Source: a virus
Lineage: Duplodnaviria; Heunggongvirae; Uroviricota; Caudoviricetes
Strand: one strand, 5' to 3'
DNA: 64,000 bases
Virus record (IMG/VR): IMGVR_UViG_2579778842_000017
Coordinates: 5,703-69,702 of that record
Within the stretch, counting starts at the first letter, position 1. Each line of letters opens with the position of its first letter. Below, piece by piece: positions 36,061 to 56,441 of this stretch. Under the pieces are notes generated by a model. The model ran no database searches. It worked only from the letters and a program-made list of their open reading frames with translations, and was not told where the DNA came from. The translations under genes and the position numbers were made by a program.

Positions 36061-36391
36061 ATCAGCAGCAGAGCGCAAAGCCGCTCAGAGAGCCAGACAA
36101 GCTGCATCTGGTGTGCGTAAGCTGGAGATTGTGCTTGATGCTCAGGAAATTGAAATGCTGGAGCGTAACTGTGCCACGCGTCGCCCCGGGCGTGCGCCTT
36201 ACGAATTTGGTGAGTATATAGCGTTACTGATCCGCCAGGATGATGCACGCGTGCACGGGCGTATAAAATCGATCAGCAGAAAACGTTGCGGTAAGTGCGG
36301 CGAGAGAGTTCCTGTGAATTCATGCCCGTGTAATGGTGACTCGCAATGCTGGGTGACTAAAGGCTGGCATGAAACGAAATTAATAGTGTGA
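36053..36391 (+). CDS. hypothetical protein (Cys-rich C-terminus)
   Basis: 112 aa; the stop codon lies inside the GTGACATGTCAC palindrome. Confidence 0.45.
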   Translation: MAKSAAERKAAQRARQAASGVRKLEIVLDAQEIEMLERNCATRRPGRAPYEFGEYIALLIRQDDARVHGRIKSISRKRCGKCGERVPVNSCPCNGDSQCWVTKGWHETKLIV

Positions 36392-36399
36392 CATGTCAC
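36388..36399. promoter_or_regulatory. perfect 12-bp palindrome GTGACATGTCAC (copy 1)
   Basis: Exact palindrome; identical copy at 56151..56162. Confidence 0.35.
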
Positions 36400-36440
36400 G
36401 AGTAGATTATGCATGATGAATTTGATGGGTTTTGAATACT

Positions 36441-36466
36441 GCCGCCAACTATGGCGGCTTTATTTT
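36441..36466 (+). terminator. intrinsic terminator between early-left operon and terS-B
   Basis: GCCGCC-AACTAT-GGCGGC hairpin followed by TTTATTTT. Confidence 0.55.
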
Positions 36467-36473
36467 GCATGGT

Positions 36474-36502
36474 ACTATTACCACAACGGTAACTATTACC
36501 AC
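36474..36502 (+). repeat. 11-bp direct repeat ACTATTACCAC x2 upstream of terS-B
   Basis: Copies at 36474 and 36492; second embedded in GGTAA-CTA-TTACC. Confidence 0.35.
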
Positions 36503-36509
36503 GGTGGTT

Positions 36510-37106
36510 ATGATGCCTGCTGAACCTAAAACCTATAAACGCAAATCAACGCAATTTAAGCCACTAACAGCAATGCAGGAGGCTTATTGCCAGTCATACA
36601 TCAAAACGCCTGAAAACCAGACTCAGGCAGCGATTAACGCAGGATTCTCCCCAAATACAGCGGCAGTTAAAGCCAGTGTCATGATGCGCGATGAACGCAT
36701 TCAAAAACGGATTGCCGAGCTGATGGAGGAGCGCAACAAACGAATGCGCGTCAGTGCTGATTACGTTCTCATGCGCCTGGTGGAGATCGACCAGATGGAC
36801 GTGATTGATATCCTCAACGACGATGGGAGTCTTAAGCCAATCCGCGAGTGGCCGAAAATCTGGCGCACTACGCTTAGTGGCTTTGATCTGTCATCGACCA
36901 TCATGAACATGAACGAGGATTCGATAGAGACAATCCTCAAAAAAATTAAATGGCCTGACAAGATGAAGAACCTCGAACTGATTGGTAAGCACGTCGACGT
37001 TAACGCGTTCAAAGAGCGCCTGGAGGTTTCCGGCACGGTCACCATCGCCGACCGCATGGCCGCCGCCCGGCGCCGCGTCATAGAGCAGGCTGGTGGTGAA
37101 GAATGA
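36510..37106 (+). CDS. terminase small subunit (module B)
   Basis: Start refined to MMPAEPK... downstream of the terminator (track ORF from 36432); directly precedes terminase large subunit. Confidence 0.65.
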   Translation: MMPAEPKTYKRKSTQFKPLTAMQEAYCQSYIKTPENQTQAAINAGFSPNTAAVKASVMMRDERIQKRIAELMEERNKRMRVSADYVLMRLVEIDQMDVIDILNDDGSLKPIREWPKIWRTTLSGFDLSSTIMNMNEDSIETILKKIKWPDKMKNLELIGKHVDVNAFKERLEVSGTVTIADRMAAARRRVIEQAGGEE

Positions 37107-38578
37107 CAGCCGCAGCCATGTCGCCGGAAGAGCAACTCGTCGAGGATATCGCCTCGTTCACGTATGACCCGCTGGGCTATGCGCTGTATGCGTTTCCGTG
37201 GGGCGAGGAAGGCACAGAGCTGGCGCACGCCACCGGTCCGCGTAAGTGGCAGGCAGACGCATTCCGCGAGATACGCGATCACCTGCAGAACCCGGCGACG
37301 CGTCACCAGCCGTTGATGCTGGCCCGCGCATCCGGCCACGGCATCGGCAAGTCAGCTTTCATCTCAATGCTGATTAACTGGGGCATGTCCACTTGCGAGG
37401 ATTGTAAGGTCGTGGTGACCGCCAACACCGACAACCAGCTACGAACGAAGACCTGGCCGGAAATTATCAAGTGGTCGAACCTTGCTATCACGAAAGACTG
37501 GTTTACCTGTACCGCTACCGCGATGTACAGCAATGACCCTGGGCACGACAAGCGGTGGCGAGCTGACGCAATCCCCTGGTCTGAGCACAACACTGAGGCA
37601 TTCGCCGGATTACACAATGAGCGCAAACGCATCATCGTGGTATTCGATGAAGCGTCGAACATTGCGGATCTGGTGTGGGAAGTTGCTGAGGGTGCGCTTA
37701 CGGACGAAGACACTGAGATTATCTGGGTGGCGTTCGGAAACCCGACACGTAACACCGGGCGTTTCCGCGAATGTTTCCGCAAATATAAACACCGCTGGAA
37801 AACTGCACAGATTGACAGCCGGACGGTGGAAGGTACTAACAAGCAGCAATTACAGAAATGGGTTGATGACTACGGGGAAGACAGCGACTTCGTTAAAGTC
37901 CGTGTGCGCGGCATATTTCCTGATGCATCTGAATTGCAGTTTATCCCTACCGGTCTTACTGACGAGGCAATGAAACGGGTGGTAACTGCTGCGCAGGTGG
38001 CACATGCTCCGGTGATAATCGGCGTTGACCCGGCATACTCCGGCGTTGATGACGCTGTGATATACCTGCGGCAGGGGCTGCACAGTAAGGTGCTGTGGAC
38101 TGGCAACAAGACCACTGACGATCTGATAATGGCGAAGCGTATCGCTGACTTTGAAGACCAGTACCAGGCTGACGCAGTGTTCATCGACTTCGGTTACGGA
38201 ACCGGTCTGAAATCAATCGGTGACGGATGGGGTCGTACATGGCAACTTGTTCCGTTCGGTGGCGCGTCTACTGACCCGCAGATGCTCAACAAGCGTGGGG
38301 AGATGTTCAACTCATGCAAGACATGGCTGAGGCTGGGCGGCATGCTGGATGACCAGGAAACAGCGGACGACCTGTCTGCGGCAGAGTACAAAGTTCGAGT
38401 GGACGGTAAAATCGTTATCGAACCGAAGGAAGATATCAAGGAGCGGCTTGGGCGTTCGCCTGGTAAAGGCGATGCGCTACTGCTGACGTTTGCTTTCCCG
38501 GTGTCAAAGCGCCTGCGACTTCCCGGGCAGCAGAACCAGCAAGGCAAGGCCATCACAGATTACGATCCCTATGCTTAA
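37103..38578 (+). CDS. terminase large subunit (module B)
   Basis: 491 aa; Walker A-like ASGHGIGKS, ATPase and nuclease halves. Confidence 0.85.
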   Translation: MTAAAMSPEEQLVEDIASFTYDPLGYALYAFPWGEEGTELAHATGPRKWQADAFREIRDHLQNPATRHQPLMLARASGHGIGKSAFISMLINWGMSTCEDCKVVVTANTDNQLRTKTWPEIIKWSNLAITKDWFTCTATAMYSNDPGHDKRWRADAIPWSEHNTEAFAGLHNERKRIIVVFDEASNIADLVWEVAEGALTDEDTEIIWVAFGNPTRNTGRFRECFRKYKHRWKTAQIDSRTVEGTNKQQLQKWVDDYGEDSDFVKVRVRGIFPDASELQFIPTGLTDEAMKRVVTAAQVAHAPVIIGVDPAYSGVDDAVIYLRQGLHSKVLWTGNKTTDDLIMAKRIADFEDQYQADAVFIDFGYGTGLKSIGDGWGRTWQLVPFGGASTDPQMLNKRGEMFNSCKTWLRLGGMLDDQETADDLSAAEYKVRVDGKIVIEPKEDIKERLGRSPGKGDALLLTFAFPVSKRLRLPGQQNQQGKAITDYDPYA

Positions 38579-38668
38579 TCCGCTTGAGGGGATAATGTCG
38601 TTGATATCCTCTGATGAGGATAAAACAAAGCCAGCTCATAGGCTGGCTGTTTGTGATATGTCACGGTG

Positions 38669-39040
38669 TTATTGCTCGCTTAACTTCTGCTTCAGCAAGT
38701 AACCTTCAAGCATCCAGATTTTGTTTACAGCATTCTGTCGGGCAATCTTCCGACCAATTTCTGCATCAAAGTTTTCCGGGCTTGCACAGGCGCTCTCTCC
38801 GGTGACGGTGAAGCCGTTGCGCAGCACCAGGACGCAGAACGTCAGCAGAGAAAGTGATTCGTGCGGCTGGTAGTTTACCTCTCCGCCAGTATGTTTCGCT
38901 TTTATGGCTACGCCAAAGGCACCATCTTCTGCTGTGAAATATGCCTCCTGAGCAATAATGCTCTCGATATGGTCTGGCGTAACGCGCGGCGCGGCTAAAC
39001 CTTTAGCCTGAATTTCAGATTCAATGTCTTTGTCACTCAT
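38669..39040 (-). CDS. hypothetical protein (antisense to module B late genes)
   Basis: 123 aa on the opposite strand between terL-B and the tRNA. Confidence 0.5.
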   Translation of the reverse strand: MSDKDIESEIQAKGLAAPRVTPDHIESIIAQEAYFTAEDGAFGVAIKAKHTGGEVNYQPHESLSLLTFCVLVLRNGFTVTGESACASPENFDAEIGRKIARQNAVNKIWMLEGYLLKQKLSEQ

Positions 39041-39241
39041 AGTCTAATCTCACCTTAAAAATGCCCGGCGAACCGGGCGAACTGGAAGCAATGAGTTATG
39101 CCTTCCGTGGCTGTACGGGTTTACAGCATGAAGTCATCGCAATGGCGTCCTGCTGTAAAAAGGGCGGTGATAGTCCTTCAAGGGAAACCATCACCGCCAA
39201 GCCCCTGGAACTTCTGGCATCACGGTCCTTAGGCGTGATTC

Positions 39242-39318
39242 TGGCGTGGCATGCAGGATTCGAACCTGCGACCAACCGCTTAGAAGGCGGTTGCTCTGTC
39301 CGACTGAGCTAATGCCAC
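39242..39318 (-). tRNA. tRNA-Arg (anticodon UCU)
   Basis: 77-nt cloverleaf folded by hand: 7-bp acceptor stem, T-loop TTCGAAT, anticodon loop CTTCTAA, 3' CCA encoded; differs from E. coli argU in the acceptor stem. Confidence 0.9.
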
Positions 39319-39640
39319 AACGCTGAGAGCACTTAGCCTGTTAAGGCACCACACTTTGTCGCGGCTCCATAAATGCTCTCATCGTTGTACCCTCGTCTCT
39401 TCCGAGGCGTCACACCGAATCGCCGGGATGGTGAATCCCCGTGCGCGGCATAAAACCGCTCGACTTGCACATTCCGGCTACCTGGTTCGTTTGCCCGAGC
39501 AAGGGAGGGTGCCCCTTAAACGTATCCAGACCGCTATCGGCGCATGTGCCATACGCCGTACTGCTCAAAATAAAAGCTCACTCCACCTGTTCAATTTAAC
39601 GACAAGCCAGTCAGGTTAATAACAGGAATGCACTCTATGC

Positions 39641-39655
39641 TTACCTGAAAGGTAA
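39641..39655. promoter_or_regulatory. operator-like palindrome TTACC-TGAAA-GGTAA (site 2 of 5)
   Basis: Exact match about 90 nt upstream of the 39746 ORF and portal; flanks resemble site 5. Confidence 0.4.
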
Positions 39656-39745
39656 TAATTCGTGCGTTAAATGTCAACTACCTACGATAAATAAATCATA
39701 TGTGGTTAAATTGGTAATAATTTAATTGCGTACGGAGTCATTGAT

Positions 39746-39952
39746 ATGTGCATGGGTAGCTCACCATCAGTGCCTGCAACACCAGAAGTTCAGGCAGCAC
39801 CACAGGAGCAGGATGCCGCCGTTGTTGATGCCCGCGACGAAGAAACTCGTCGCCGTCGCGCTGCTGCTGGTCGTAGTTCTACGCTGCTTACCGGTTCTCA
39901 GGGCGACACATCAACCGCTAATACCAGCGGTAAAACGCTGCTTGGTCAGTAA
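39746..39952 (+). CDS. small hypothetical protein preceding portal B
   Basis: 68 aa; GGAG ribosome-binding site; the 12 nt before its ATG (CGGAGTCATTGA) recur before the portal ATG. Confidence 0.35.
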   Translation: MCMGSSPSVPATPEVQAAPQEQDAAVVDARDEETRRRRAAAGRSSTLLTGSQGDTSTANTSGKTLLGQ

Positions 39953-39966
39953 CCGGAGTCATTGAA

Positions 39967-41646
39967 ATGGCGGAAACAACTAAAGAGCGATTGAACAAAC
40001 AGTTCGCACAACTTGAAAGCGAGCGTCAGTCGTTCGAGCCGCACTGGCGCGAGTTGAGTGATTACATCAACCCGCGTGGTTCCCGCTTTCTGACTTCTGA
40101 GGTCAACCGTAACGATCGACGCAATACACGCATTATTGATTCGACCGGGACTATGGCGGCGCGCACTCTCGCCAGCGGCATGATGTCAGGCATCACAAGC
40201 CCCGCGCGTCCGTGGTTTCGCCTGGCTACGCCAGATCCTGAAATGATGGATTATGGCCCTGTTAAGTTGTGGCTTGAGGCGGTGCAGAACCGCATGAACG
40301 ATATGTTCAATAAGTCGAATCTCTATCAGTCGCTGCCGCAGTTATACGGAAGCCTCGGCACATACAGCACTGGTGCAATGGCAGTGCTGGAGGATGACGA
40401 GGACATCATTCGCACAATGCCATTCACGATAGGCAGTTACTACCTGGCTAACTCACCTCGTGGCAGTGTGGACACCTGTTTTCGCAAGTTCTCTATGACT
40501 GTTCGTCAGCTTGTTCAGGAGTTCGGGCTAAATAACGTCAGCGAATCCGTAAAAAGCATGTGGGAAAGCGGCACCTACGAGAAGTGGATTGAAGTGATGC
40601 ATTCGGTTTACCCGAACATTGACCGCGATACATCGAAGCTGGATAGCAAGAACAAGCCATTCAAATCGGTTTATTACGAGGTTGGTGGCGATAACGACAA
40701 GTTGTTGCGTGAGTCCGGATTCGATGAGTTTCCAATTATGGCTCCGCGCTGGGAAGTTAACGGCGAAGATGTTTATGGATCATCATGCCCGGGCATGCTG
40801 GCGCTTGGACCTGTTAAGGCATTGCAGCTTCTCCAGAAGCGCAAGTCGCAGTTGATTGATAAAGCCACCAATCCGCCGATGGTTGCTCCGATTTCCCTCA
40901 AGAATCAGCGTGCCTCCCTTCTTCCTGGCGACATCACGTATATCGATCAGATTACTGGTCAGGATGGTTTCAGGCCTGCTTATCTGGTTAACCCCAGTAC
41001 AGCAGATTTGGTGGCAGACATTCAGGACACTCGTCAAATCATTAACAGCGCCTACTTTGTCGATCTGTTCATGATGTTGCAGAACATCAATACCCGCTCG
41101 ATGCCTGTTGAAGCGGTGATCGAAATGAAAGAAGAAAAACTTCTGATGTTGGGGCCGGTTCTGGAGCGTCTGAACGACGAATGTCTTAATCCTCTCATTG
41201 ACCGCGCTTTCTCGATGATGGTGCGTAAAAACATGTTGCCGCCACCGCCTGACGCGATGGAAGGCATGCCCCTGAAGGTCGAATACATTTCCGTCATGGC
41301 TCAGGCGCAGAAGTCTATCGGCCTGTCCAGTCTGGCGTCCACGGTTAACTTCATTGGTCAACTTGCGCAAGCGAAACCAGAAGCTCTCGACAAACTCAAC
41401 GTTGATCAGGCGATCGATGCATTCGCTGATATGTCCGGAGTGTCTCCAACCGTCATTGTTCCGCAGGAACAGGTTGAGCAGGCTCGCCAGCAACGGGCAC
41501 AGCAACAACAGCAGCAACAAATGATGGCCATGGGGATGGCGGCGGCACAGGGTGCCAAGACGCTAAGCGAAGCTAAAACTTCGGATCCGAGTGTTTTGTC
41601 AGCTATGGCGAATGCAGTTAGTGGTCAGGGTGGGCAATCACAATGA
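39967..41646 (+). CDS. portal protein (module B)
   Basis: 559 aa following terminase; size compatible with T7 gp8-type portals. Confidence 0.75.
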   Translation: MAETTKERLNKQFAQLESERQSFEPHWRELSDYINPRGSRFLTSEVNRNDRRNTRIIDSTGTMAARTLASGMMSGITSPARPWFRLATPDPEMMDYGPVKLWLEAVQNRMNDMFNKSNLYQSLPQLYGSLGTYSTGAMAVLEDDEDIIRTMPFTIGSYYLANSPRGSVDTCFRKFSMTVRQLVQEFGLNNVSESVKSMWESGTYEKWIEVMHSVYPNIDRDTSKLDSKNKPFKSVYYEVGGDNDKLLRESGFDEFPIMAPRWEVNGEDVYGSSCPGMLALGPVKALQLLQKRKSQLIDKATNPPMVAPISLKNQRASLLPGDITYIDQITGQDGFRPAYLVNPSTADLVADIQDTRQIINSAYFVDLFMMLQNINTRSMPVEAVIEMKEEKLLMLGPVLERLNDECLNPLIDRAFSMMVRKNMLPPPPDAMEGMPLKVEYISVMAQAQKSIGLSSLASTVNFIGQLAQAKPEALDKLNVDQAIDAFADMSGVSPTVIVPQEQVEQARQQRAQQQQQQQMMAMGMAAAQGAKTLSEAKTSDPSVLSAMANAVSGQGGQSQ

Positions 41647-41939
41647 CAGATTACGAAGACGATCAACTGAAAGAAGAAAACGCCCGTAAGCAACGTGACA
41701 TGGCACAGCGTGAAATTGATGACATTCGCTTTGTCATGAGCAGTGAACAGGGGCGTCGCGTTGTCTGGTCTGTGCTGGAGAAAGGCCGTGTGTTTTCCGC
41801 TATCTCTCCGATGGATGCTATGGCAATGGCATTTAATGAGGGGCAACGCAATCTGGCGCTGGAACTGTTTCAGCGCGTTATGGCGCATTGCCCTGAACAG
41901 TATTTGAAGATGGCCAAAGAGGCCAGTGAACAGGAGTGA
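41643..41939 (+). CDS. hypothetical protein
   Basis: 98 aa between portal and scaffold. Confidence 0.4.
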   Translation: MTDYEDDQLKEENARKQRDMAQREIDDIRFVMSSEQGRRVVWSVLEKGRVFSAISPMDAMAMAFNEGQRNLALELFQRVMAHCPEQYLKMAKEASEQE

Positions 41940-42637
41940 TCATGAATTTATTTGAGCGTTTGCTGTATCGCCGTCTTTGCAATGAGCAACCAGTCGATGG
42001 TGGAGCAGCTCCGGCTGCGTCAGAACCATCAGCGCCTGCAGGTGATAACCATGCTCCAGTTGGTGATCCATCACAACAAGAAGGTGATAAGCCGCAACCT
42101 GTTGCTGATGGCGATAAACCTGCTGATGACAAAAAGTCTGAAAGCGATAAGCAGGGTGAAAAAAAGGACGGCGATAAACCGGATGGTGCGCCGGAGAAGT
42201 ACGAGTTTCAGGCTGCCGAAGGCGTAGAGCTGGATACAGAAGCGTTGAAGGAATTCGAGCCGGTGGCGCGAGAACTAAACCTGACCAACGAGCAAGCGCA
42301 AAAGCTGGTTGATGCTTATCCGAAGATTCTGGCAGGTGTTCAGCAGCGCCAGGCAGAAGCCTGGCAGAAAACAACCGAGCAGTGGGCTGCTGATGTAAAA
42401 GCTGACAAAGAAATCGGTGGCGACAAGTTGATTTCTAACCTTAGCGCCGCACAGCGTGCGCTTGACCAGTTCGGGACACCTGAACTCAAAGAATATCTGA
42501 ACACCACCGGGCTGGGTAATCACCCTGATCTGGTCAAAACGTTCGTGAAAATCGGAAAGGCGATGTCTGAAGATGGCATGGTCACCGGTGGTAATGAAGG
42601 CCAGCGTAGTGCGGCCGAAGTGCTCTATGGCAAATAA
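41936..42637 (+). CDS. scaffolding protein (module B)
   Basis: 233 aa, acidic Pro/Asp/Lys-rich N-terminus, helical C-terminus; precedes capsid gene. Confidence 0.55.
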   Translation: MIMNLFERLLYRRLCNEQPVDGGAAPAASEPSAPAGDNHAPVGDPSQQEGDKPQPVADGDKPADDKKSESDKQGEKKDGDKPDGAPEKYEFQAAEGVELDTEALKEFEPVARELNLTNEQAQKLVDAYPKILAGVQQRQAEAWQKTTEQWAADVKADKEIGGDKLISNLSAAQRALDQFGTPELKEYLNTTGLGNHPDLVKTFVKIGKAMSEDGMVTGGNEGQRSAAEVLYGK

Positions 42638-42645
42638 GAGAGGAA

Positions 42646-43638
42646 ATGACAATGGCTGTTAAAGGCTTAACTGCGCTAACGCTGGCTGACTGGGGTAAGC
42701 GCGTCGATCCAAACGGGAAAGTCGATAAGATTATCGAGCTTCTCGGTCAAACTAACCCGATCCTTCAGGATATGCCTTTTGTCGAAGGGAACCTTCCTAC
42801 CGGACACCGAACCACCATTCGTTCTGGTTTACCTTCAGCTACCTGGCGTTTGCTGAACTATGGCGTACAGCCAAGCAAATCAACCACAGTGCAGGTAACC
42901 GATTCCGTTGGCATGCTGGAAACCTATGCTGAAGTCGATAAGTCACTGGCTGATCTGAACGGCAATACCGCCGAATTCCGCCTGTCTGAAGACCGCGCAT
43001 TTATTGAAGCGATGAATCAGCAGATGGCGCAGACGCTATTTTATGGTGATTCCAGCGTTAACCCTCAGCAGTTTATGGGACTGTCCTCCCGCTATTCCAG
43101 CCTGTCTGCGGGTAATGCTCAGAACATCATTGATGCTGGTGGCACGGGTACAGATAACACCTCCATCTGGTTAGTGGTGTGGGGCGAAAACACCGTGCAT
43201 GGCATCTTCCCGAAAGGGCAGAAGGCTGGCATTCAGATGGAAGATAAAGGCCAGGTGACACTGGAAGATGTTAATGGCGGCAAGTACGAAGGCTACCGTA
43301 CCCATTACAAATGGGATAACGGACTTGCTCTGCGTGACTGGCGTTATGTTGTTCGCATTGCAAACATCGATGTCAGCAATCTTTCAGAACCTTCCTCTGC
43401 CGCAAATATTGCGAAGTTGATGGTTAAAGCACTGCATCGCATTCCAAATCGTGGCATGGGTCGCCCGGTGTTCTACATGAACCGCACTGTAGGCCAGGCT
43501 CTTGATCTGCAATCTCTGGAGAAAACATCTCTGGCGATCAGCGTAAAAGAGACAGAAGGCGAGTGGTGGACTTCATTCCGTGGTGTACCAATCCGTGAAA
43601 CTGATGCGCTTCTGGAAACAGAAGCCCGCGTGGTGTAA
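42646..43638 (+). CDS. major capsid protein (module B)
   Basis: 330 aa after scaffold; hairpin GTGGGTC-GTAACA-GACCCAC just downstream. Confidence 0.75.
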   Translation: MTMAVKGLTALTLADWGKRVDPNGKVDKIIELLGQTNPILQDMPFVEGNLPTGHRTTIRSGLPSATWRLLNYGVQPSKSTTVQVTDSVGMLETYAEVDKSLADLNGNTAEFRLSEDRAFIEAMNQQMAQTLFYGDSSVNPQQFMGLSSRYSSLSAGNAQNIIDAGGTGTDNTSIWLVVWGENTVHGIFPKGQKAGIQMEDKGQVTLEDVNGGKYEGYRTHYKWDNGLALRDWRYVVRIANIDVSNLSEPSSAANIAKLMVKALHRIPNRGMGRPVFYMNRTVGQALDLQSLEKTSLAISVKETEGEWWTSFRGVPIRETDALLETEARVV

Positions 43639-43689
43639 CGCCTGTTATTAACCTGTGGGTCGTAACAGACCCACTAATGGAGAAAGAAG

Positions 43690-44127
43690 ATGATCACCGA
43701 CAAACTGTTGATGTTCTCCGAAGCTCAGGCGGTTACGAATACCGCGGCTTCTACTGACGTAATCGATCTCGGTCCAATTGACGGAAAACGTCGTGATATC
43801 GGCGTGGGTTACCCGCTTGAGTTTTGGGCGCTGGTTAACACAGCCGCCGCGGCAAGCGGTAATGCAACTGTAAACATCCAGTTGCAGACGAGTGAGAATA
43901 ACAGCTCATGGACCACTATTTATGATAGTGGCGCACTGGCAAAGACCGCCCTGACAGCAGGTAAACGAGTTGTTTCTGCAAAGGTGCCTGCCGGTGTTCA
44001 GCGATATCTGCGTGTTAACTACTCCGTCGCAACCGGCCCACTAACGGCTGGCGAATTCACTGCTGGTATCAGTCTTGATGTTGATGCCAATACGCCGTAT
44101 CCGATCCGCTCAAAAGTAACTGGTTAA
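43690..44127 (+). CDS. virion-associated hypothetical protein
   Basis: 145 aa, position after capsid gene. Confidence 0.45.
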   Translation: MITDKLLMFSEAQAVTNTAASTDVIDLGPIDGKRRDIGVGYPLEFWALVNTAAAASGNATVNIQLQTSENNSSWTTIYDSGALAKTALTAGKRVVSAKVPAGVQRYLRVNYSVATGPLTAGEFTAGISLDVDANTPYPIRSKVTG

Positions 44128-44128
44128 G

Positions 44129-44473
44129 GTGATATCGATGTCAGGTGAGAAACCAAGATACCGCGTTCTGCGCCTCTCTCATATCCATAACACTCTGTGG
44201 CCGGAGGGGGCAGAAATCGAATACGAAGGTGAGCCTGGTAGCGCACTGGAACCTGTTAACGATGCAGCCAGACAGGCAAAAGCAAAAGTTGCAGGAAAGG
44301 TGTCAATGGCAGCAACCAGCACCAAAATCATCAACGATGTGTCAGATGATGATGAACTGGATAAGCTCCGTGAAGAGTACGAATTGCTCTTTAACGAGAA
44401 GCCACACCATAACGCCAAAGCCGAAACGCTCCGCGAGAAGATCGCAGATAAGCGTAAAGAACTGGGCGTGTAA
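44129..44473 (+). CDS. hypothetical protein
   Basis: 114 aa. Confidence 0.4.
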   Translation: MISMSGEKPRYRVLRLSHIHNTLWPEGAEIEYEGEPGSALEPVNDAARQAKAKVAGKVSMAATSTKIINDVSDDDELDKLREEYELLFNEKPHHNAKAETLREKIADKRKELGV

Positions 44474-44490
44474 GCCTCGCGAATCAGACA

Positions 44491-44510
44491 AGGGGCTTCG
44501 GCCCCTTTAT
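44491..44510 (+). terminator. intrinsic terminator after the capsid gene block
   Basis: AGGGGC-TTCG-GCCCCT hairpin followed by TTAT. Confidence 0.5.
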
Positions 44511-44517
44511 TGCAGGA

Positions 44518-47923: not shown

Positions 47924-48387
47924 TGATCGATGTTCAAATTATTCCCGCAACCGAAGAGCATCTTCAGATGATTTTGCCGGATGTTCGTCAGGCTGATATT
48001 GACGAACTGTATGCGGTATCACTGATGACTACCGAAGATGCGCTGCGTGTTGGTCTGCGTACTGCGACTATGGCCTGGTCAGGATTTGCGAACGGAGAAC
48101 TGGTAACCATGTTTGGCGTATCTCCGGCGTCAATGATCGGTGGCAATGGTACGCCCTGGCTGGTAGGAACCAGCCGTATTGAAAAATATCAGAAGACATT
48201 TCTGCGCCACTGCCGCCCTGTATTGCAGCAGATGCTGGCAGTTTATCCGCGCCTGGAAAACTACGTCGACGAGCGAAACCATGTTGCCAAAGCATGGCTG
48301 CACTGGCTTGGATTCAGGCTTGAAGAAGCCGCGCCTTATGGTGCTCTTGGTCTTAATTTCCACAGATTTCACATGGAGAGAAAATAA
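47923..48387 (+). CDS. internal virion protein (gp13-like position)
   Basis: 154 aa, synteny only. Confidence 0.4.
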   Translation: MIDVQIIPATEEHLQMILPDVRQADIDELYAVSLMTTEDALRVGLRTATMAWSGFANGELVTMFGVSPASMIGGNGTPWLVGTSRIEKYQKTFLRHCRPVLQQMLAVYPRLENYVDERNHVAKAWLHWLGFRLEEAAPYGALGLNFHRFHMERK

Positions 48388-48932
48388 TGTGCGATCCGGT
48401 TATTGCTGGTGGCGCAATGCTCGCCATGAGTGGCATTCAGGCATACACCCAGTACCAACAGGGAAAGTATGTCTCGAAGGTTGCAGAAGCGAACGCAGAT
48501 ATAGCCACAGCTCAGGCAAATGATGCAATAAACAGAGGTAACGCTGAAGCTGAGCAACGGCGCAGAGAGACCCGACAGCGGCTTGGTACACAGGCGGCGA
48601 CAATGGGGGCTACCGGCGCTGATTTATCTACAGGTAACGCGCTGGATATATTTGGCGACACTGCCCAGTTTGGCGCTCTTGATTCGCTGACGACGGTGAA
48701 TAACGCGCAACGCGAGGCTTACGGTTATCAGGTTCAGGCTGCCAACTATAAAGCAGAAGCCAGTTCAGCCCGTAAACAGGGGAATGTGGGAGCAGCAACA
48801 ACATTGCTCACCGCGCCTCTGAAGGCATACGGTGCGTACCAGATGTTTGGTGGGACGTGGAGTCCGTTTACTCAAAGCACTCCTGCGCCAATCGGGGCAG
48901 CAGCAGGAACCAGATTACCCGGAGGATTATAA
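48387..48932 (+). CDS. internal virion protein (gp14-like position)
   Basis: 181 aa, Ala/Gly/Gln-rich. Confidence 0.45.
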   Translation: MCDPVIAGGAMLAMSGIQAYTQYQQGKYVSKVAEANADIATAQANDAINRGNAEAEQRRRETRQRLGTQAATMGATGADLSTGNALDIFGDTAQFGALDSLTTVNNAQREAYGYQVQAANYKAEASSARKQGNVGAATTLLTAPLKAYGAYQMFGGTWSPFTQSTPAPIGAAAGTRLPGGL

Positions 48933-51445
48933 TGCCAGTCGTACCAACAGTATCCGGACGTCAGGTTGAGAGCCGTGGAGTTCAGTCAGCAGGCTTGCAG
49001 ACGTTTTCTCAGCCAGGTATTGGTGATGCTTTTGTTCGGGCAGGGACAGAGGCAATTGATGTTTTGGGGCAGGCAAAACAGCGTGCCAATATCGCTCTGG
49101 CTCAGGAGGCATCTCTTAACCTCAGTCAGATAAGCAGCGATCTGCTGAATAATCCTGAAACAGGATTGCTTAACCTGAAAGGGAAAAATGCTATTGGAAA
49201 AGGCCATGAGTATACGCAGCAGTTTGATGCTCAGGTCGAACAACTGGCTATGTCGCTGCCGGATGAACAGGCTCGTAATGCTTTCATGCAGCAGGCGCAG
49301 CAGCAGCGCATTCAGTTCACTACGCAGGCCGGGCGACACGAGATAGGGCAAATTAATGCCTACGAAGAAGGCCAGTTTCAGGCGACACTGCTGAACAATG
49401 GTAAAAATGCCGCAGCATTGTATGGCGACAACGCCGCATACGTATTGGCTAACAAGCAAACTTTCCAGCAAATTGAGGAGTACGGTGTTGCACATGGCTG
49501 GAGCAACGAGCAAATCCAGGCCAAGAAAATCGAGTTTAAAGAGAAGGTTGCTGATGCTGCATTGTCCCAGTGGTCGGCAAACAATGCGACCGCATTCATC
49601 CAAAGTAATGGCGAGTTAAGTGATACTGCTGCTGGAGCTCGCCGTGCTGTAGCAGATAGTGACTCTTCCGAGCGTGCCCGTGGCATACGCAACAATAACC
49701 CAGGAAATCTCGAATACAGCAAAACTAATCCGTGGGTAGGCCAGACCGGTGATGATGGTCGATTTGCTAAATTCGAAACACCTGAACACGGGATTCGTGC
49801 ATTAGGGCGGAACCTGATGTCGTATCAGAGGCAGGGTATTGATACTGTCAGCGAGATAATTAATCGCTGGGCACCGCCTGCTGATAAAAATGACACTATG
49901 TCGTATATCAAAGCAGTGTGCGAACAACTTGGCGTTTCTGCTGATGAGCCTCTCGATGCATCTAATCCTGATACCCTGAAGGCGCTTTGTGCAGCCATTA
50001 TCCATCATGAGAACGGTAGCCAGCCATACAGTGATCAGCAGTTAACTGCTGGTGTCAGTGCAGCACTTGGTTTATCAACAATTCCAACCAACACCAAACG
50101 CTATACCGGTAATGCAGCATTCGATGCGGCATCTCCTGAGGCGCAGGCAAGTTTTATGCGACAGGCGGATCAACTGCGTCGGCAGCAGCAGGCTGAATAT
50201 AAAACGATGATTGACAGCCAGGTTCGCGATGCGACAGCTGCGTATATGCGTGGCGTTGAATTTCCTAACCCACCTGGTGAGGCTGATTTTATTGCAGCTT
50301 ATGGAGTAAGAGAAGGAAACCTGCGATATACCGAGTTCAGAAATACGCAAATCGCCGGACAGTATATAGGCTCTTTCCGCAACATGCCGACAAGCAGCAT
50401 TACAGCATATGTTGAGCAATTACGCCCGGATACTGGTGAGACAGGGGAGGGTTATGCGGCACGAGCCGCTCTTTATGACAACGTTGTGTCGGCTGCAAGT
50501 CAGGTGATAAAGCAGCGACAGGCTGATCCTGTACAGTTCTCTCTTGCCGCCGGACAGGCAAAGCCTATCGACATGAGCAATAAGGATAACTTTGGACAGA
50601 GCGTTGCCTTGCGTGCTGCTCAGGTCAGTGACCTTGCTAAGTCATATGGCACTCCACTGACGTTCTTTTCCAAAGACGAGGCCAATCAGATCGGTGTTTT
50701 CTTTCGTGATGCTCCAGTTTCCCAACAGGCAGCATATCTCGACACCATCAGGCAGAGCACTGGTGGTGGGCAGGTGTATATGTCAGCACTACAGCAGATC
50801 AGTGCCAACGCTCCATCTGCTGCCGTTGCCGGGATACTGATGGATAAGCCTGGTGGTATTTTGGCAGAAAAAAACTGGTTTAATCCGGATGTTTCCGTGT
50901 CTCCTGAAACCGCTGCGCAGACAATTCTTGCTGGCGCGGCGGCTCGTAAAGGTACTGATGATGCGAAAGGTATTCCGATGCCTAAAGATGCTGATCTTCG
51001 CCTTGAGTTTTCTGACATGGTGAAGGATGCATTTGCTGGTGACGCTCATGGGGCATCAATGGCATACGAGATCGCAAAGGATTATTACGCTGGTGTGATG
51101 GCGAAAAAAGGCGTGGTATCAGGAGAAATTGACAATGATGTCTGGAAACAGGCTGTTAACGTAGCTACAGGTGGCGTGCATGACTATAACGGAATGGGGA
51201 ATGTCCTTTTGCCGTGGGGAATGTCTGCAGAGCAATTCGATAAGCAGGTTAATCAGGCTTGGAATGAACAAGTTGTCGGCTCCGGGATAAAAACACCGCC
51301 TGGTCAGTATGGTTTGCAAAGTTACGGCGATAGTCAGTACCTGGTGAAACTTGGTACTGGTTATCTGCTGAAAGATGATGGTTCTCCCGTTGTTCTTAAT
51401 CTGACACAGAAGCGTCAGAGATTCTCCGGAGATATTCCGCAATGA
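48932..51445 (+). CDS. internal core protein (gp15-like position)
   Basis: Start refined to MPVVPTVSG... (TAATG overlap); about 838 aa; segment RGIRNNNPGNLEYS...WVGQTGDDGRFAKF may be a cell-wall-active domain. Confidence 0.5.
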   Translation: MPVVPTVSGRQVESRGVQSAGLQTFSQPGIGDAFVRAGTEAIDVLGQAKQRANIALAQEASLNLSQISSDLLNNPETGLLNLKGKNAIGKGHEYTQQFDAQVEQLAMSLPDEQARNAFMQQAQQQRIQFTTQAGRHEIGQINAYEEGQFQATLLNNGKNAAALYGDNAAYVLANKQTFQQIEEYGVAHGWSNEQIQAKKIEFKEKVADAALSQWSANNATAFIQSNGELSDTAAGARRAVADSDSSERARGIRNNNPGNLEYSKTNPWVGQTGDDGRFAKFETPEHGIRALGRNLMSYQRQGIDTVSEIINRWAPPADKNDTMSYIKAVCEQLGVSADEPLDASNPDTLKALCAAIIHHENGSQPYSDQQLTAGVSAALGLSTIPTNTKRYTGNAAFDAASPEAQASFMRQADQLRRQQQAEYKTMIDSQVRDATAAYMRGVEFPNPPGEADFIAAYGVREGNLRYTEFRNTQIAGQYIGSFRNMPTSSITAYVEQLRPDTGETGEGYAARAALYDNVVSAASQVIKQRQADPVQFSLAAGQAKPIDMSNKDNFGQSVALRAAQVSDLAKSYGTPLTFFSKDEANQIGVFFRDAPVSQQAAYLDTIRQSTGGGQVYMSALQQISANAPSAAVAGILMDKPGGILAEKNWFNPDVSVSPETAAQTILAGAAARKGTDDAKGIPMPKDADLRLEFSDMVKDAFAGDAHGASMAYEIAKDYYAGVMAKKGVVSGEIDNDVWKQAVNVATGGVHDYNGMGNVLLPWGMSAEQFDKQVNQAWNEQVVGSGIKTPPGQYGLQSYGDSQYLVKLGTGYLLKDDGSPVVLNLTQKRQRFSGDIPQ

Positions 51446-53244
51446 GTTACTTTGGCCTTAATCCAGTAAACCAGAATCAGCAGCTTGACGAAGCAGCATC
51501 AAATCCAGCTGGCTTTAACAGCGATGTTGGTTTTTTCGACAATGCTGTAGGAGCGGCATTGTCTGGTTTGTACTCCGGGCTGGTGGCAAAGCCAGATCAG
51601 TTGCTATGGGCAGGGATGGATAAAATCGTATCCCCGATTGCTCAGTTTGTTAACGAAAACACCTCGCTCAATGACACTTCAGTTTCATACATTGCTGAGC
51701 AGAGAAAACTAGCAGAGCAGCAGGTTAAGCGGCTGACGCCTGATGCCGCGACAACCGGAACCGCCGGGCAGGTCCTTTATGGGTTGTTCGATATGGGCGG
51801 GCAGGCTGTTGTCGGTACAACGCTCGGTGGTCCGGTCGGAGGTGCTGCGGCGGTAACTTCGCTACAGGGTTTTTCTGAGTTTGAACGGCTGACAGCACAG
51901 GGTGTTGATTTCAGGACGGCGCAGGAAGCGGGATTAGTGCAGGGTATTACTGCTGGTGCCGGAACACTGATCCCTATGAGCCTCGGGTTACGTGCTGGTG
52001 GTGCGCTGGCGGAAGGTGTGGCGGCTCAGCTTGCGCGGACGGGTGAAAGTTCAGTGCGACGCGCCGCAGCAACAGCAGTACGTGCAACGCCAGATATTGC
52101 CTATGCCGCAGGTACAAATATTGCGTTCGGTATGGCACAGCGTGGGCTTACTGCAAAAACGCTTCGTGATGGTGGCTATAGCGAAATGGCTAACCAGTAT
52201 GATGTGTTGGATCGACAGGCAATTGCTATTGATGCTGTTCTTGGGGTGGCGTTTGGTGGTGTCGGCAGATTTATTAACTCTCGCGGCGAGTCTACAAGCG
52301 CACCAAATTTTTCACCAGTTGATATTGATGCTGCACTGGCGGCGAATGCCGCTCATCATGCTGAAATTGATATTGCTCCCGGCGTTCCGATCAACGTGCT
52401 TTCGCGTAATTCGCACATTCAGGCTCTGCGAAAAGCCATGTCTGATGTTAGCCAGGGGAGACCTGTAGACGTTGCCAGCATTGTTGAGTCTGCATCTTTC
52501 AGTGAAATTCCTGGGCGCAAGAGTCTGCTGTCTCAGGCAGTTAATGAGGCTCTGTCATCTGTAGATGATGGAGTAACTGCGCGCGCTATAGAAAATCGGT
52601 TGCTTGAAGAACAGGCCGCGCAGCTTTTGTCGCGTGGCGATAGACAGGTTTACCAGTCTGAAATCGCTAATAGCCAACGAATTATTGAAAATCTCACTGA
52701 ACAGCGCGCACAAATTCTTGCAGAAGAGCCAACCGGTAGCGGTAAGGCTTTATCTCGTGCTCGATCAGATAAACAGGCCAGACTTCGCGATATTGACCAA
52801 CGAATCCGGCAGGCACAAGAACGCCTGGAATTTTCTCGTAACGCGTTGGCGCCGCACGAGCCTGGAGGTCAGTTTTTTGAAGCTCGAGCAGAACTGGCAC
52901 GACGACAGCAGGCAGAAAGTGAACTTAATGCTCAGGCTGTTTCATTCTATAAAACAGCAGAGGTCAGGACGCCAGACGAAGTAGCTCCTTTTGAGCCCGG
53001 TAAGATATTGCAACAGACAGAACAAAAAATGATGGCAGATCCGGCAGGAGATATTGATCTGCGTATAGCTGAAGACTCGCTGCTTGAATCTCCGGACATG
53101 ATAATCACCGTGCTGGATGATGATGGTAATCCACAATCGCGCAGTGCGCGTGAAGTACTGGATGAAGCGAACAGGGAAAGTGAGCAGGCAATACAGGATT
53201 CCAGCCTGTTTGATGTCGCTGTGGCGTGTTTCTTGAGAGGTTAA
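51442..53244 (+). CDS. internal core protein (gp16-like, part 1)
   Basis: 600 aa, synteny only. Confidence 0.5.
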   Translation: MSYFGLNPVNQNQQLDEAASNPAGFNSDVGFFDNAVGAALSGLYSGLVAKPDQLLWAGMDKIVSPIAQFVNENTSLNDTSVSYIAEQRKLAEQQVKRLTPDAATTGTAGQVLYGLFDMGGQAVVGTTLGGPVGGAAAVTSLQGFSEFERLTAQGVDFRTAQEAGLVQGITAGAGTLIPMSLGLRAGGALAEGVAAQLARTGESSVRRAAATAVRATPDIAYAAGTNIAFGMAQRGLTAKTLRDGGYSEMANQYDVLDRQAIAIDAVLGVAFGGVGRFINSRGESTSAPNFSPVDIDAALAANAAHHAEIDIAPGVPINVLSRNSHIQALRKAMSDVSQGRPVDVASIVESASFSEIPGRKSLLSQAVNEALSSVDDGVTARAIENRLLEEQAAQLLSRGDRQVYQSEIANSQRIIENLTEQRAQILAEEPTGSGKALSRARSDKQARLRDIDQRIRQAQERLEFSRNALAPHEPGGQFFEARAELARRQQAESELNAQAVSFYKTAEVRTPDEVAPFEPGKILQQTEQKMMADPAGDIDLRIAEDSLLESPDMIITVLDDDGNPQSRSAREVLDEANRESEQAIQDSSLFDVAVACFLRG

Positions 53245-53249
53245 ATTAA

Positions 53250-55724
53250 ATGAGACAGGAATGTATACAAGCGGTCCAGCAGGCGGCGCAGCGCACGTTA
53301 ACGGCGCGAGAAATACAGAACATTGAAGACCGCATTTATCGAAATATGCGCTCCATTGCTCGTGATGACCCGATGTCGTGGAGACAACTTTCCGAATCAG
53401 AGCGGCTATATCGTGCAGCACAATTGGCATCTGAAGAATTACAGCGAGAAGCGGCATTAAAGAAACGTCGTGTGGCCCTCACTATAGCCGCACGTCAGAG
53501 ATTGGATAAATTTATCAATAGCTATCAAGGGGCTGATGGGAAACTTGGCGCTCTTAACCGTACTATTGCTTTTAATGCAGACGGTAAATCGAATTTCCTC
53601 TCTGTTGAATCCAGAACAAAAGCCACCCGTGATTATGCATTGAGTCAATTGCAGGAGGCATTCGAAGCAGTTGATCCTCGCTTTTTTGGTCTGTTTGAAG
53701 ATGAAGCGGGCGTACGTGACCTGGTATATGAAATGCGGGGGCAAAATACTGGCAATGCTAAAGCAAGAAAAGGTGCTAAGGCGTGGAGAGAAGTGACAGA
53801 GCTACTGCGCCGCCGGTTTAATGATGCTGGTGGGGACATTGGCTATCTCGAAAACTGGGGGATCCCTCAACATCATTCTATGGAAAAGGTTGGGGCGGTA
53901 TCAAAGGATAAGTGGGTTAGCGATGTTATAGGTAAGCTGGATCGCAAATATTATATCCGAGCCGATGGACAACTGATGAACGATGCCGAGTTGTCTGCAT
54001 TTCTTGGAGAGGCTTATAACACGATCGCTACTGGTGGGCTGAATAAGCTTACTGATACCGGAATGCGAATTTCCGGCGCACGTGCTAACCGTGGTAATGC
54101 ATCACGACAGATACATTTCAAAGATGCAGATTCCTATCTGCAATATCAGCAACTTTATGGCGATCGCTCTCTATGGGAAATCATGGTCGGTCACCTGGAA
54201 GGTATCAGTAAAGATATTGCACTGGTGGAAACATATGGTCCAAACCCCGATCATGTTTTCCGCTCCCTTCTTGATCAGGTTAAGGCAGAAACGGCAACAG
54301 CTAACCCGAGTAAAACCGGTAAAGTCGAGCGGCTGGCGAACAAAACAGAGAACCTGTACAACTTTATTTCCGGAAAGACACAGCCTGTAGCGAATCCGCA
54401 CATCGCGCGATGGTCTGACAATATCCGCAACTGGCTGGTTGCCAGCAGACTCGGATCCGCGTTGCTGTCATCGTTCTCTGATCTTGGAACCATGTATCTG
54501 TCTGCGAAGGTTACCAACCTTCCAATGAACCAGTTATTCCGCAACCAGCTTGAAGCTATGGACCCAACGAACCGTACAGAACTTGCGCGGGCGCGCCGCG
54601 CTGGTCTGGCGATGGAATCTCTACTTGGCAGCGTTAACCGCTGGGCGATGGATAATATGGGGCCGTCAGTGTCTCGTTGGGCGGCAACGGCGGTAATGCG
54701 TGCCAGTGGGCTTACAGCATGGTCAGATGCGCACAAGCGCGCCTATGGCGTAACCATGATGGGAAGCCTGGGAGAAGTAGTGTCACGGACACCAGACCTT
54801 CGTAGCCTCGATGACTATGATTTTCGTATCCTGAAAAGCAAAGGGATTACTGACACAGACTGGAGCGTATGGAAGCTGGCGCAACAGGAGGACTGGGGGA
54901 ACGGTAATAATACGATGCTGACACCGGAAAGCATTATGCGTATCCCTGATTCAGCAGTTAAACATCTTGGTGAGCCTGAACGTGTGAAATTTGAGGCAAT
55001 GCGTAAACTGCTCGGTGCCGTAACTGAAGAAGTTGATATGGCTGTTATTACACCGGGCGCACGTGAACGGATGTTCGTAGGGTCTGGTCTTCAGCGTGGA
55101 ACATGGAAAGGTGAATTAACGAGAAGTGTTTTCCTGTTTAAATCGTTCCCTATCTCGGTAGTTATGCGTCACTGGCATAGAGCTATGGGGATGCCGTCTG
55201 CTGGTGGGCGTGCGGCATATATAGCAACGTTTTTAGCAAGCACAACCATGCTTGGTGCTCTTTCCATGCAGATTACTGATCTTATTAATGGGAGAAATCC
55301 AAAAGAAATGACCGGTGACAACATGGTTAAATTCTGGATAAATGCATTTTTAAAAGGTGGTGGGGCAGGGTTGTATGGTGATTTTCTTTTCTCTGACCAC
55401 ACCAGGTACGGGAGCGGCGCACTAGCGTCGATGCTTGGCCCGGTAGCTGGTCTGGTTGATGACGTAGTGAAGATTGCTCAGGGCATACCGTTAAATGCTG
55501 TGGAAGGGAAGAATGAGCAGACTGGTGGTGATCTGGTTAAGCTTGGGAAAGGTTTGATGCCTGGTGCGAATCTCTGGTACTTGAAGGCGGCTCTCGATCA
55601 CATGATCTTTAATCAGATGCAGGAGTATTTTTCACCAGGCTATTTGCGTAAAATGGAGCAACGTTCGAAGAAAGAGTTTAACCAGACATACTGGTGGCGA
55701 CCTCAGGATGTCACTCCGCAATAA
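53250..55724 (+). CDS. internal core protein (gp16-like, part 2)
   Basis: 824 aa, synteny only. Confidence 0.5.
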   Translation: MRQECIQAVQQAAQRTLTAREIQNIEDRIYRNMRSIARDDPMSWRQLSESERLYRAAQLASEELQREAALKKRRVALTIAARQRLDKFINSYQGADGKLGALNRTIAFNADGKSNFLSVESRTKATRDYALSQLQEAFEAVDPRFFGLFEDEAGVRDLVYEMRGQNTGNAKARKGAKAWREVTELLRRRFNDAGGDIGYLENWGIPQHHSMEKVGAVSKDKWVSDVIGKLDRKYYIRADGQLMNDAELSAFLGEAYNTIATGGLNKLTDTGMRISGARANRGNASRQIHFKDADSYLQYQQLYGDRSLWEIMVGHLEGISKDIALVETYGPNPDHVFRSLLDQVKAETATANPSKTGKVERLANKTENLYNFISGKTQPVANPHIARWSDNIRNWLVASRLGSALLSSFSDLGTMYLSAKVTNLPMNQLFRNQLEAMDPTNRTELARARRAGLAMESLLGSVNRWAMDNMGPSVSRWAATAVMRASGLTAWSDAHKRAYGVTMMGSLGEVVSRTPDLRSLDDYDFRILKSKGITDTDWSVWKLAQQEDWGNGNNTMLTPESIMRIPDSAVKHLGEPERVKFEAMRKLLGAVTEEVDMAVITPGARERMFVGSGLQRGTWKGELTRSVFLFKSFPISVVMRHWHRAMGMPSAGGRAAYIATFLASTTMLGALSMQITDLINGRNPKEMTGDNMVKFWINAFLKGGGAGLYGDFLFSDHTRYGSGALASMLGPVAGLVDDVVKIAQGIPLNAVEGKNEQTGGDLVKLGKGLMPGANLWYLKAALDHMIFNQMQEYFSPGYLRKMEQRSKKEFNQTYWWRPQDVTPQ

Positions 55725-55733
55725 GGAACAACA

Positions 55734-56147
55734 ATGAAGGAATTATTGCTGTTATCGGTATTTTTGATATCCGCTTGCTCGACATCCTATGATGTTTATG
55801 ACGGTGTTGATAAGGCATATTGCGACAAAGTTAAAATGGATTTTTCTCTTGCCAAGACGGCGAAGGATAGTTGTATTGATCACTACGTCAAGACTTATAC
55901 CAAGCCAGCCTCATCGGCATCTGATATTGCTGAAGGTGCTGTGTTTGAGTGTAACAAGGTGATATCCATCGCAGCGAGTTCTTCATACGATGCTGCTGTA
56001 TGTGCAATGGCTGAAAGAAACGGCATGTCAGTGCAAAAAATTAATAGCATGATAAGCAGTAATGACGAAGCCAAAATAAGAACTGATATCAGCTCGGTGA
56101 AAAAAGATGCCATGAACAGAGTTGTAAAATATCAGTCATCTTTATAA
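55734..56147 (+). CDS. lipoprotein (possible superinfection-exclusion moron)
   Basis: 137 aa; signal peptide with lipobox LISAC; last gene of the plus-strand structural block. Confidence 0.55.
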   Translation: MKELLLLSVFLISACSTSYDVYDGVDKAYCDKVKMDFSLAKTAKDSCIDHYVKTYTKPASSASDIAEGAVFECNKVISIAASSSYDAAVCAMAERNGMSVQKINSMISSNDEAKIRTDISSVKKDAMNRVVKYQSSL

Positions 56148-56150
56148 GTC

Positions 56151-56162
56151 GTGACATGTCAC
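56151..56162. promoter_or_regulatory. perfect 12-bp palindrome GTGACATGTCAC (copy 2)
   Basis: Starts 4 nt after the lipoprotein stop, directly followed by a terminator hairpin. Confidence 0.35.
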
Positions 56163-56186
56163 AGGCCGCTTTCGCGGCCTTGTTTT
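56163..56186. terminator. terminator between lipoprotein gene and convergent peptide gene
   Basis: GGCCGC-TTTC-GCGGCC hairpin followed by TTGTTTTT on the plus strand. Confidence 0.55.
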
Positions 56187-56440: not shown

Positions 56441-56441
56441 C

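Follow-up and report, generated by a model that had tools for sequence, protein, structure and literature searches.

The window analysed here is a 64,000-nucleotide stretch of tailed-phage DNA (IMG/VR record IMGVR_UViG_2579778842_000017), which from ~34 kb rightwards is an epsilon15/phiV10-like (Uetakevirus) prophage; the element under study is the 12-bp palindrome GTGACATGTCAC, which recurs at operon ends in this prophage and whose first copy overlaps the 3′ end of a gene for a 112-residue early protein. Positions 34076-57499 are 99.6% identical to a prophage of Escherichia coli UMNK88 inserted next to guaA, and the locus is collinear with phiV10, epsilon15, TL-2011b, ZX5, Tyrion and Klebsiella BUCT711, all of them Uetakevirus phages. 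Its early-right operon ends with the 112-residue protein gene (36053-36391, plus strand), which is followed by site 1, a terminator, the terminase genes terS (36513-37106) and terL (37103-38578; together 36513-38578, plus strand), a second terminator and site 2. Beyond site 2 come one or more minus-strand cassette genes with a tRNA-Arg, the portal gene and the remainder of the virion-protein operon; this closes with a variable small gene, site 3 and a terminator, beyond which lies a convergent leftward operon containing an anti-repressor gene. The tRNA-Arg(TCT) gene (39242-39318, minus strand) belongs to the insert between terL and the portal region, upstream of the cassette gene next to site 2.

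Site 1, an exact GTGACATGTCAC at 36388-36399, contains the TGA stop codon (36389-36391) of the 112-residue protein gene, and 41 nt past it a terminator-like hairpin with a T run (36441-36466, plus strand; stem 36441-36458) marks the end of the early operon. Site 2 (GTGATATGTCAC, 38653-38664) has one mismatch in the window and is a perfect palindrome in relatives. It is preceded, at a distance of 4 nt, by a bidirectional terminator-like hairpin (38629-38648) set between terL and a convergent cassette gene of the N4 Gp49/Sf6 gene 66 family (38669-39040, minus strand; PF13876, 2.4e-35), whose stop codon lies 4 nt away on the other side. Site 3, again GTGACATGTCAC (56151-56162), follows the stop codon of the open reading frame (ORF) 55734-56147 (plus strand), a cassette gene that encodes a predicted lipoprotein of 137 residues (lipobox LISAC) and is one of at least ten alternatives at this position. 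It abuts a further terminator-like hairpin with a T run (AGGCCGCTTTCGCGGCCT, 56163-56187, plus strand; stem 56163-56180, then TGTTTTT), which lies where the virion-protein operon meets the convergent leftward operon with the anti-repressor gene (56186-57896, minus strand). All three epsilon15-type sites thus adjoin intrinsic terminators, two of them at convergent junctions.

This arrangement agrees only in part with the initial annotation, which had described the two exact copies. Each does lie at a gene end next to a terminator, and the second does follow the lipoprotein stop codon, but the gap there is 3 nt (gtc) rather than 4. The idea that the pair brackets the whole structural module does not hold: the second copy stands to the left of both the tail-spike gene (58650-60677) and the lysis genes, each genome actually has three sites, all of them at operon ends, and the element belongs to a gene-plus-site module that also occurs in phages with unrelated structural genes.

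Exactly two exact copies of the 12-mer (36388-36399 and 56151-56162) occur in the window, versus a mean of 0.01 in dinucleotide-preserving shuffles of the same DNA, none of which (0/100) contained two or more; that the pair lies far above chance, as first proposed, is borne out. The looser pattern GTGACNNGTCAC has two matches in the window against 0.04 expected, and a mismatch-tolerant scan recovers site 2 as a third copy. Another one-mismatch match, GTGACATGGCAC at 41695, is coding sequence (RDMAQ), is conserved as such and is probably no site. The consensus of the palindrome is GTGAC-NN-GTCAC, with AT as the central dinucleotide in the epsilon15-like lineage, and among inverted GTGAC/GTCAC half-sites only those with a 2-bp spacer are enriched. 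When spacers of 0-6 bp are compared in 11 gene-carrying phage genomes, there are 27 spacer-2 sites, a single spacer-3 (13-bp) site, in Vibrio phage K303, and none with any other spacing, the chance expectation for a spacer-2 site being ~0.04 per genome; likewise, 1.38 Mb from 80 close IMG/VR loci contain 131 spacer-2 sites versus 0-3 for each other spacer. Spacer-2 sites are lacking altogether from lambda, from the P22-like left 34 kb of the window (1-34075) and from 387 kb of unrelated bacterial DNA, and so far as the DNA scanned can tell, the 12-mer is not the frequent host element that would have refuted the initial proposal. The half-sites taken singly are unremarkable: their density in the window, 1.39 per kb, is ordinary, and the related half-sites earlier pointed out at 1786 and 60704-60727 turn out to be isolated. 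Those at 60704-60727, downstream of the tail-spike gene, are inverted half-sites of the form CATGTCAC-N10-TGACAT, with a different spacing and nothing linking them to the system.

Within the genus, three perfect palindromes are found in epsilon15 (at 39612, 2142 and 19517), in Tyrion (one across the record ends, the others at 2702 and 20377), and in HEMP4 and ZX5. In phiV10, sites 2 and 3 are perfect and site 1, which spans the record ends, has one mismatch; the start of this record inside the palindrome is not a genome end, merely the point where the record was cut after the gp55 stop codon. Klebsiella BUCT711 has perfect sites 1 and 3 and, like TL-2011b, no palindrome copy at the position of site 2. 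All three sites are kept in the Salmonella, E. coli and Enterobacter members, and two in the Klebsiella member. The flanks of the sites, terminator stems included, differ among Uetakevirus phages, and base-for-base conservation of the sites amid diverging flanks is strong comparative evidence for a function.

Site 1 is kept in 118 instances, its upstream flanks forming six classes and its downstream flanks at least 12 unrelated ones. In the epsilon15-like group the gene and the site stay together across all downstream neighbours, which comprise a terminator plus terS, a 70-residue ORF, a promoter with a LexA box, an AlpA-like gene or a 143-residue ORF. The full 70-residue ORF (MPKIRYDLEDM...), present in 28 of the 80 close relatives, starts 9 nt past the palindrome and precedes the terminator; of this cassette only the last eight codons, MHDEFDGF followed by a stop codon, survive in the window (36409-36435, plus strand). 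In six IMG/VR loci (L010, L028, L039, L011, L120 and L126) a promoter-like sequence with the LexA box tACTGTttaaatatACAGTa lies within ~25 nt of site 1. A UmuD-like-looking gene follows the box in L010, the only one of these loci whose ORF was read out, and box and gene together suggest that an SOS-controlled unit abuts the palindrome in the LexA-box loci.

The association of gene and site reaches well beyond the genus. Homologues of the 112-residue protein in phages with unrelated virion genes were identified by tblastn against a phage collection (identities below refer to the aligned segment), and six distant ones were recovered, among mostly chance matches, using a back-translated DNA pattern over genome contigs. 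Down to ~30% identity, these homologues carry GTGAC-NN-GTCAC at or near the 3′ end of the gene, usually together with further copies. In Pectobacterium phage ZF40 (66%) GTGACATGTCAC itself lies 2 nt past the stop codon and two more perfect copies are present; a P2-like Yersinia phage (42%) has GTGACGCGTCAC, with a GC spacer, over the stop codon and no other copy; and phiKO2 and N15 (35-37%) have GTGACTGGTCAC, with a TG spacer, in the same position, as well as an identical second copy in repA. Among the distant homologues, that of Paraglaciecola has GTGACAGGTCAC (AG spacer) over the stop codon, and GTGACCGGTCAC (CG spacer) lies 5 nt past the stop codon in Tolumonas and within the last 20 nt of the gene in Aeromonas. 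Vibrio phage K303 and the IMG/VR locus L214 (~31%) have three 12-bp sites each, the nearest one 140-230 nt from the gene end. Some copies fall inside coding regions, namely gp08 and gp12 of ZF40 and repA of N15. The extra sites of ZF40 and N15/phiKO2 lie within early operons at a distance of 0.6-1 kb from the immunity region, a position that does not obviously suit operators of initiation but could fit an effect on elongation.

In six lambdoid contigs (L015, L020, L025, L077, L118 and L127) the exact 12-mer also turns up as codons 2-5 (MRDMSQ...) of a gene for an antiterminator Q, presumably of the phage 82/933W type. No copy of the gene for the 112-residue protein family is found within the available DNA of each of these loci.

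The 112-residue protein, a homologue of epsilon15 gp49, phiV10 gp55 and N15 gp46, matches PHROG 536, 'transcriptional regulator' (1.5e-54), and has no Pfam assignment. Every epsilon15/phiV10-type phage examined encodes it. Its 720 close homologues come without exception from Enterobacterales, and at 50% identity no more than 180 representatives turn up among 1.84 billion proteins; the hosts seen for the entire gene family are confined to Enterobacterales, Vibrionales, Aeromonadales and Alteromonadales. A first AlphaFold2 model, built from an alignment of close homologues, had a mean predicted local distance difference test score (pLDDT) of 61 and gave meaningless Foldseek hits; with a deeper alignment the pLDDT rises to 92. 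This second model consists of a basic helix (residues 5-19), an extended segment, helices 30-42 and 52-75, a C-terminal zinc ribbon with an invariant CxxC motif and later Cys residues, and a short helix. The protein is predicted to combine an N-terminal basic helix with a ribbon-helix-helix (RHH) domain and a C-terminal zinc ribbon. RHH proteins bind DNA as symmetric dimers, a mode of binding that would suit a 12-bp inverted repeat. In the basic helix R8 and R13 are near-invariant, paralleling the invariant outer GTGAC half-sites, and the strand residues vary by lineage, paralleling the central dinucleotide (epsilon15 and ZF40 share KLExxLD and an AT spacer), a co-variation that is qualitative only. 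In the searchable literature, queried for the 12-mer, for epsilon15 gp49 and for an RHH plus zinc ribbon protein in prophages, no published description of the motif or of the function of the protein was found.

Arrays of GTCACG/GTGAC half-sites are seen inside ORFs of the IMG/VR loci L046 (~700-800) and L075 (~1850-1960), and arrays occur also in L027, L056 and L113. In L046 and L075 they directly follow an ERKRRQRER-type motif that resembles the conserved basic helix (ERKxxQRxR) of the RHH/zinc-ribbon family, in ORFs resembling what we take to be 'replisome organizer' proteins. The arrays, probably from high-GC phages, look like origin iterons embedded in a coding region.

At the level of compared sequences, the site is real and conserved, specific for the 2-bp spacer, linked to one protein family and bordered by cassette breakpoints. 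With a probability of roughly 0.55, we regard it as a conserved cis-acting site whose likeliest ligand is a dimer of the 112-residue early protein; because the site accompanies this gene family across distant phages, the palindrome is most likely the operator of that protein. Of the two functions first suggested for it, a protein binding site and a site of module exchange, the former is the one that the comparative evidence supports best, with the RHH/zinc-ribbon protein as the candidate ligand and its binding to the palindrome as something we infer.

Because it is placed at operon ends beside terminators, the palindrome probably modulates transcription there, as its position suggests. In the mechanism that we propose, the early protein would accumulate during lytic growth and occupy the three sites, that is, the end of the early-right operon, the junction of terL with the antisense cassette and the junction of the virion-protein and anti-repressor operons. 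Once bound, it would alter the behaviour of RNA polymerase, acting, in the simplest case, as a roadblock or as an insulator that sharpens operon boundaries, and occupancy of site 1 would also limit read-through out of the operon of the protein itself. The roadblock or insulator role is our preferred reading of the mechanism, and as a claim on its own it is tentative; antitermination, or looping between the sites, may apply instead. It is possible, if rather doubtful, that the RHH/zinc-ribbon protein and GTGAC-N2-GTCAC make up a so far undescribed module, spread among temperate phages of the four host orders, for site-specific control of termination or read-through that would make operon boundaries depend on a protein, perhaps in an interplay with the host protein MatP and its chromosomal site matS in which the phage system would interact with them, mimic them or evade them.

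Operators that act on initiation fit the sites poorly: sites 2 and 3, both between convergent genes, have no promoter match, and the promoter-like match at site 1 is weak (9/12) and not conserved in epsilon15. A Q-dependent late promoter with a Q-binding element (QBE) at site 1, by analogy with lambda PR′-tR′, was rejected on account of this weak match and its lack of conservation in epsilon15, and a role in Q loading was rejected as ZF40, N15 and phiKO2 encode a separate Q-like protein besides the homologue of the 112-residue protein.

Several points weigh against an operator of the 112-residue protein that acts at operon ends. RHH autoregulators do not usually have their site downstream of the gene, as is the case here, and in Vibrio K303 and L214 even the nearest copy is 140-230 nt removed from the gene end. 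An intrinsic terminator is sometimes absent after site 1, so that the coupling to terminators is not universal, and a roadblock before the late genes would bring no obvious benefit. Moreover, the ligand could be another shared phage protein or a host protein such as MatP, in which case the linkage to the gene would reflect something besides binding.

Module exchange, the second of the functions first suggested, has to be weighed against the behaviour of homology around the sites. At site 3, at least ten unrelated classes of sequence occupy the 30 nt that face the late operon, the opposite side always being the GGCCGC...GCGGCC terminator, and BLAST alignments of relatives stop at 55724-55728 and restart at 56149-56150. 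At site 2 the alignment with HEMP4 ends exactly at 38664, there are at least eight alternative right flanks, in most of which a stop codon on the minus strand lies 4 nt away from the palindrome, and the region 38665-39046 is swapped out or missing in other relatives. In related phages, too, the palindrome is found at module boundaries: in many genomes a short conserved sequence stands at the junction of non-homologous segments, and at all three sites homology breaks at the palindrome or within a few bases of it.

These breaks would be expected if the palindrome were primarily a site of recombination or module exchange, acted on directly or serving, together with the terminator, as a homology 'linker', a reading that we consider unlikely. 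It would account for breaks that, at sites 2 and 3, fall on the very edge of the palindrome or no more than 1-2 nt away, for a cassette ORF starting 9 nt past site 1, and for the range of cassettes (at least ten at site 3, at least eight at site 2, the 70-residue ORF present or absent at site 1), and genes for RecT/RecE-type recombinases are present in these phages. Boundaries just as sharp, however, are expected from purifying selection acting on a functional site that occupies one of the few intergenic gaps, and exchange leaves unexplained both why the site follows one gene family into P2-, N15- and ZF40-like phages and why it occurs in coding regions (ZF40 gp08 and gp12; N15 repA). No site-specific recombinase is evident, and 12-14 bp is short for exchange of the RecT type. 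The coincidence of cassette boundaries with the palindrome at three sites therefore stands, but nothing shows that the palindrome promotes recombination. Since constraint on a functional site beside few intergenic gaps makes for sharp boundaries, and is simpler than a dedicated recombination function, the cassette junctions are more simply explained as a by-product of that constraint.

Quite unlikely, in our estimate, is the reading in which the palindrome is a matS-like site bound by host MatP, or the phage protein mimics MatP or competes with it, so that phage DNA is tied to the machinery of chromosome organisation and division. The half-sites are identical to those of the matS consensus GTGACRNYGTCAC (PMC6907758, PMC3603311), and MatP, too, contacts DNA through an RHH element (PMC12756933). 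All hosts of the gene family are Enterobacterales, Vibrionales, Aeromonadales or Alteromonadales. The clade with MatP roughly equals those four orders. A true 13-bp matS-consensus site is carried by Vibrio K303 and Photobacterium L243. Yet the spacer of the phage site is one base shorter, a host ligand leaves the linkage to a phage gene unexplained, and homology of the phage protein to MatP is undetectable (hhalign probability 0.2). Nor is the element confined to Ter, the near-identical UMNK88 prophage being located beside guaA, a gene outside Ter. The 13-bp sites just mentioned, GTGACACCGTCAC, are at 19491-19503 in Vibrio phage K303 (locus L132) and at 7011 in L243, and 12-bp sites are present in both; the K303 copy contains the TGA stop codon of the gene 19249-19494 and is followed by a hairpin.

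A role in RNA, with the palindrome forming a small hairpin at transcript 3′ ends that aids termination, processing or stability, is very improbable. Along the direction of transcription each site does come after a stop codon and before a terminator hairpin, and computed folds stack a small stem beside the terminator stem at sites 2 and 3. The palindrome hairpin alone, however, reaches just -1.2 kcal/mol (z about 0 versus shuffles); C5 and G8, which would be loop bases, are invariant, and no changes that would preserve the stem are observed; in distant lineages it is GTGAC itself that is retained, beyond mere pairing; and sites also lie in coding regions and upstream of genes. Identity with an intrinsic terminator was likewise rejected, the palindrome stem being unstable and the true terminator hairpins being the adjacent elements. 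A pac site recognized by terminase is barely credible: sites 1 and 2 flank terS-terL and a Vibrio K303 site lies 19 nt upstream of terS, but the palindrome occurs three times in each genome, in one case 17 kb away from terS, and is present in cos-type P2-like phages as well as in N15-like and ZF40-like ones, which have unrelated terminases and no site near terS.

Two further features of the window lie outside the palindrome system. A direct repeat, two copies of ACTATTACCAC 18 bp apart (36474-36502, plus strand), is located just upstream of terS, where the epsilon15 record annotates a repressor binding site at the matching position; the repeat is context to the palindrome and suggests that the late operon is directly repressed by the prophage repressor. 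The window as a whole is a chimera or tandem of two prophage types (1-34075 and 34076-64000). The left, P22-like part has a minus-strand set of portal (11771-13987), terL (13972-15468), lysis and primase/helicase (23163-25556) genes; it also contains a CI-like S24 repressor gene (27210-27860), and at 34076 a plus-strand operon runs into the region of 99.6% identity to the UMNK88 epsilon15-like prophage. Neither an epsilon15-type immunity region nor an integrase was seen in the window left of this joint.

On strong comparative evidence, the finding is real and more general than first noted, and the reading with the best support is a putative operator of an RHH/zinc-ribbon regulator placed, unusually, at gene and operon ends. 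If this is true, it assigns a function and a DNA target to the conserved hypothetical protein PHROG 536, which is also found in N15-like, P2-like, ZF40-like and marine Vibrio phages, several of which serve in typing, in biocontrol or as models. Phage regulation has been sought mostly at promoters, and the operator would add to it a layer at operon ends; it would also explain why cassettes (morons) are exchanged only at three fixed joints, knowledge that helps in annotating genes of the prophage cargo, for example those for lipoproteins or for O-antigen-related or exclusion functions. Finally, near-identity to matS raises the question of cross-talk between phage DNA and the host machinery of chromosome organisation.

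Among known systems, the operators of RHH regulators of the CopG/Arc/MetJ type (the MetJ metbox AGACGTCT; P22 Arc and Mnt) are likewise short dyad sites with several genomic copies and an adjacent gene for a small RHH protein, here a predicted dimer. The classical ones, however, overlap promoters upstream of genes, whereas the phage sites lie at gene 3′ ends, at convergent terminators and inside operons, and the phage protein has in addition a basic helix and a zinc ribbon and falls into no Pfam family. With matS/MatP the phage element shares the inverted GTGAC/GTCAC half-sites, an RHH binder (predicted in the phage), a small number of dispersed sites per replicon and the host clade. It differs in that matS is 13 bp long with a 3-bp RNY spacer, whereas the phage site is 12 bp long with a 2-bp spacer in 27 of the 28 sites from the 11 phages; furthermore, the phage protein has no detected sequence or fold match to MatP, and its candidate sites are carried by phages and linked to a phage gene. 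Prophages are reported to avoid canonical matS.

Centromere-binding systems (P1 parB-parS, F sopB-sopC and the type Ib RHH proteins ParB/ParG) also have a gene directly followed by its own site, a candidate one in the phages, and an RHH-type protein (predicted here) with a basic N-terminus, ParB of plasmid pCXC100 being among the Foldseek matches. Unlike them, most of these phages lack an adjacent ParA, the epsilon15-like ones integrate, and the sites are single palindromes, not arrays. The 'boundary sequences' at which mosaic phages acquire morons and other cassettes are similar in that unrelated single-gene cassettes swap at a fixed short sequence plus terminator; at the phage junctions described here, however, the conserved sequence is one particular palindrome, and it accompanies a regulator gene into phages of unrelated types, which argues for a function beyond that of a joint. 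Examples of roadblocks and of termination by DNA-bound proteins include LacI at O2 and PurR within purB in bacteria, and mTERF and TTF-I in eukaryotes. The sites of these systems likewise lie inside or at the end of transcription units, away from promoters, but, unlike those of the putative phage system, they are not paired with intrinsic terminators.

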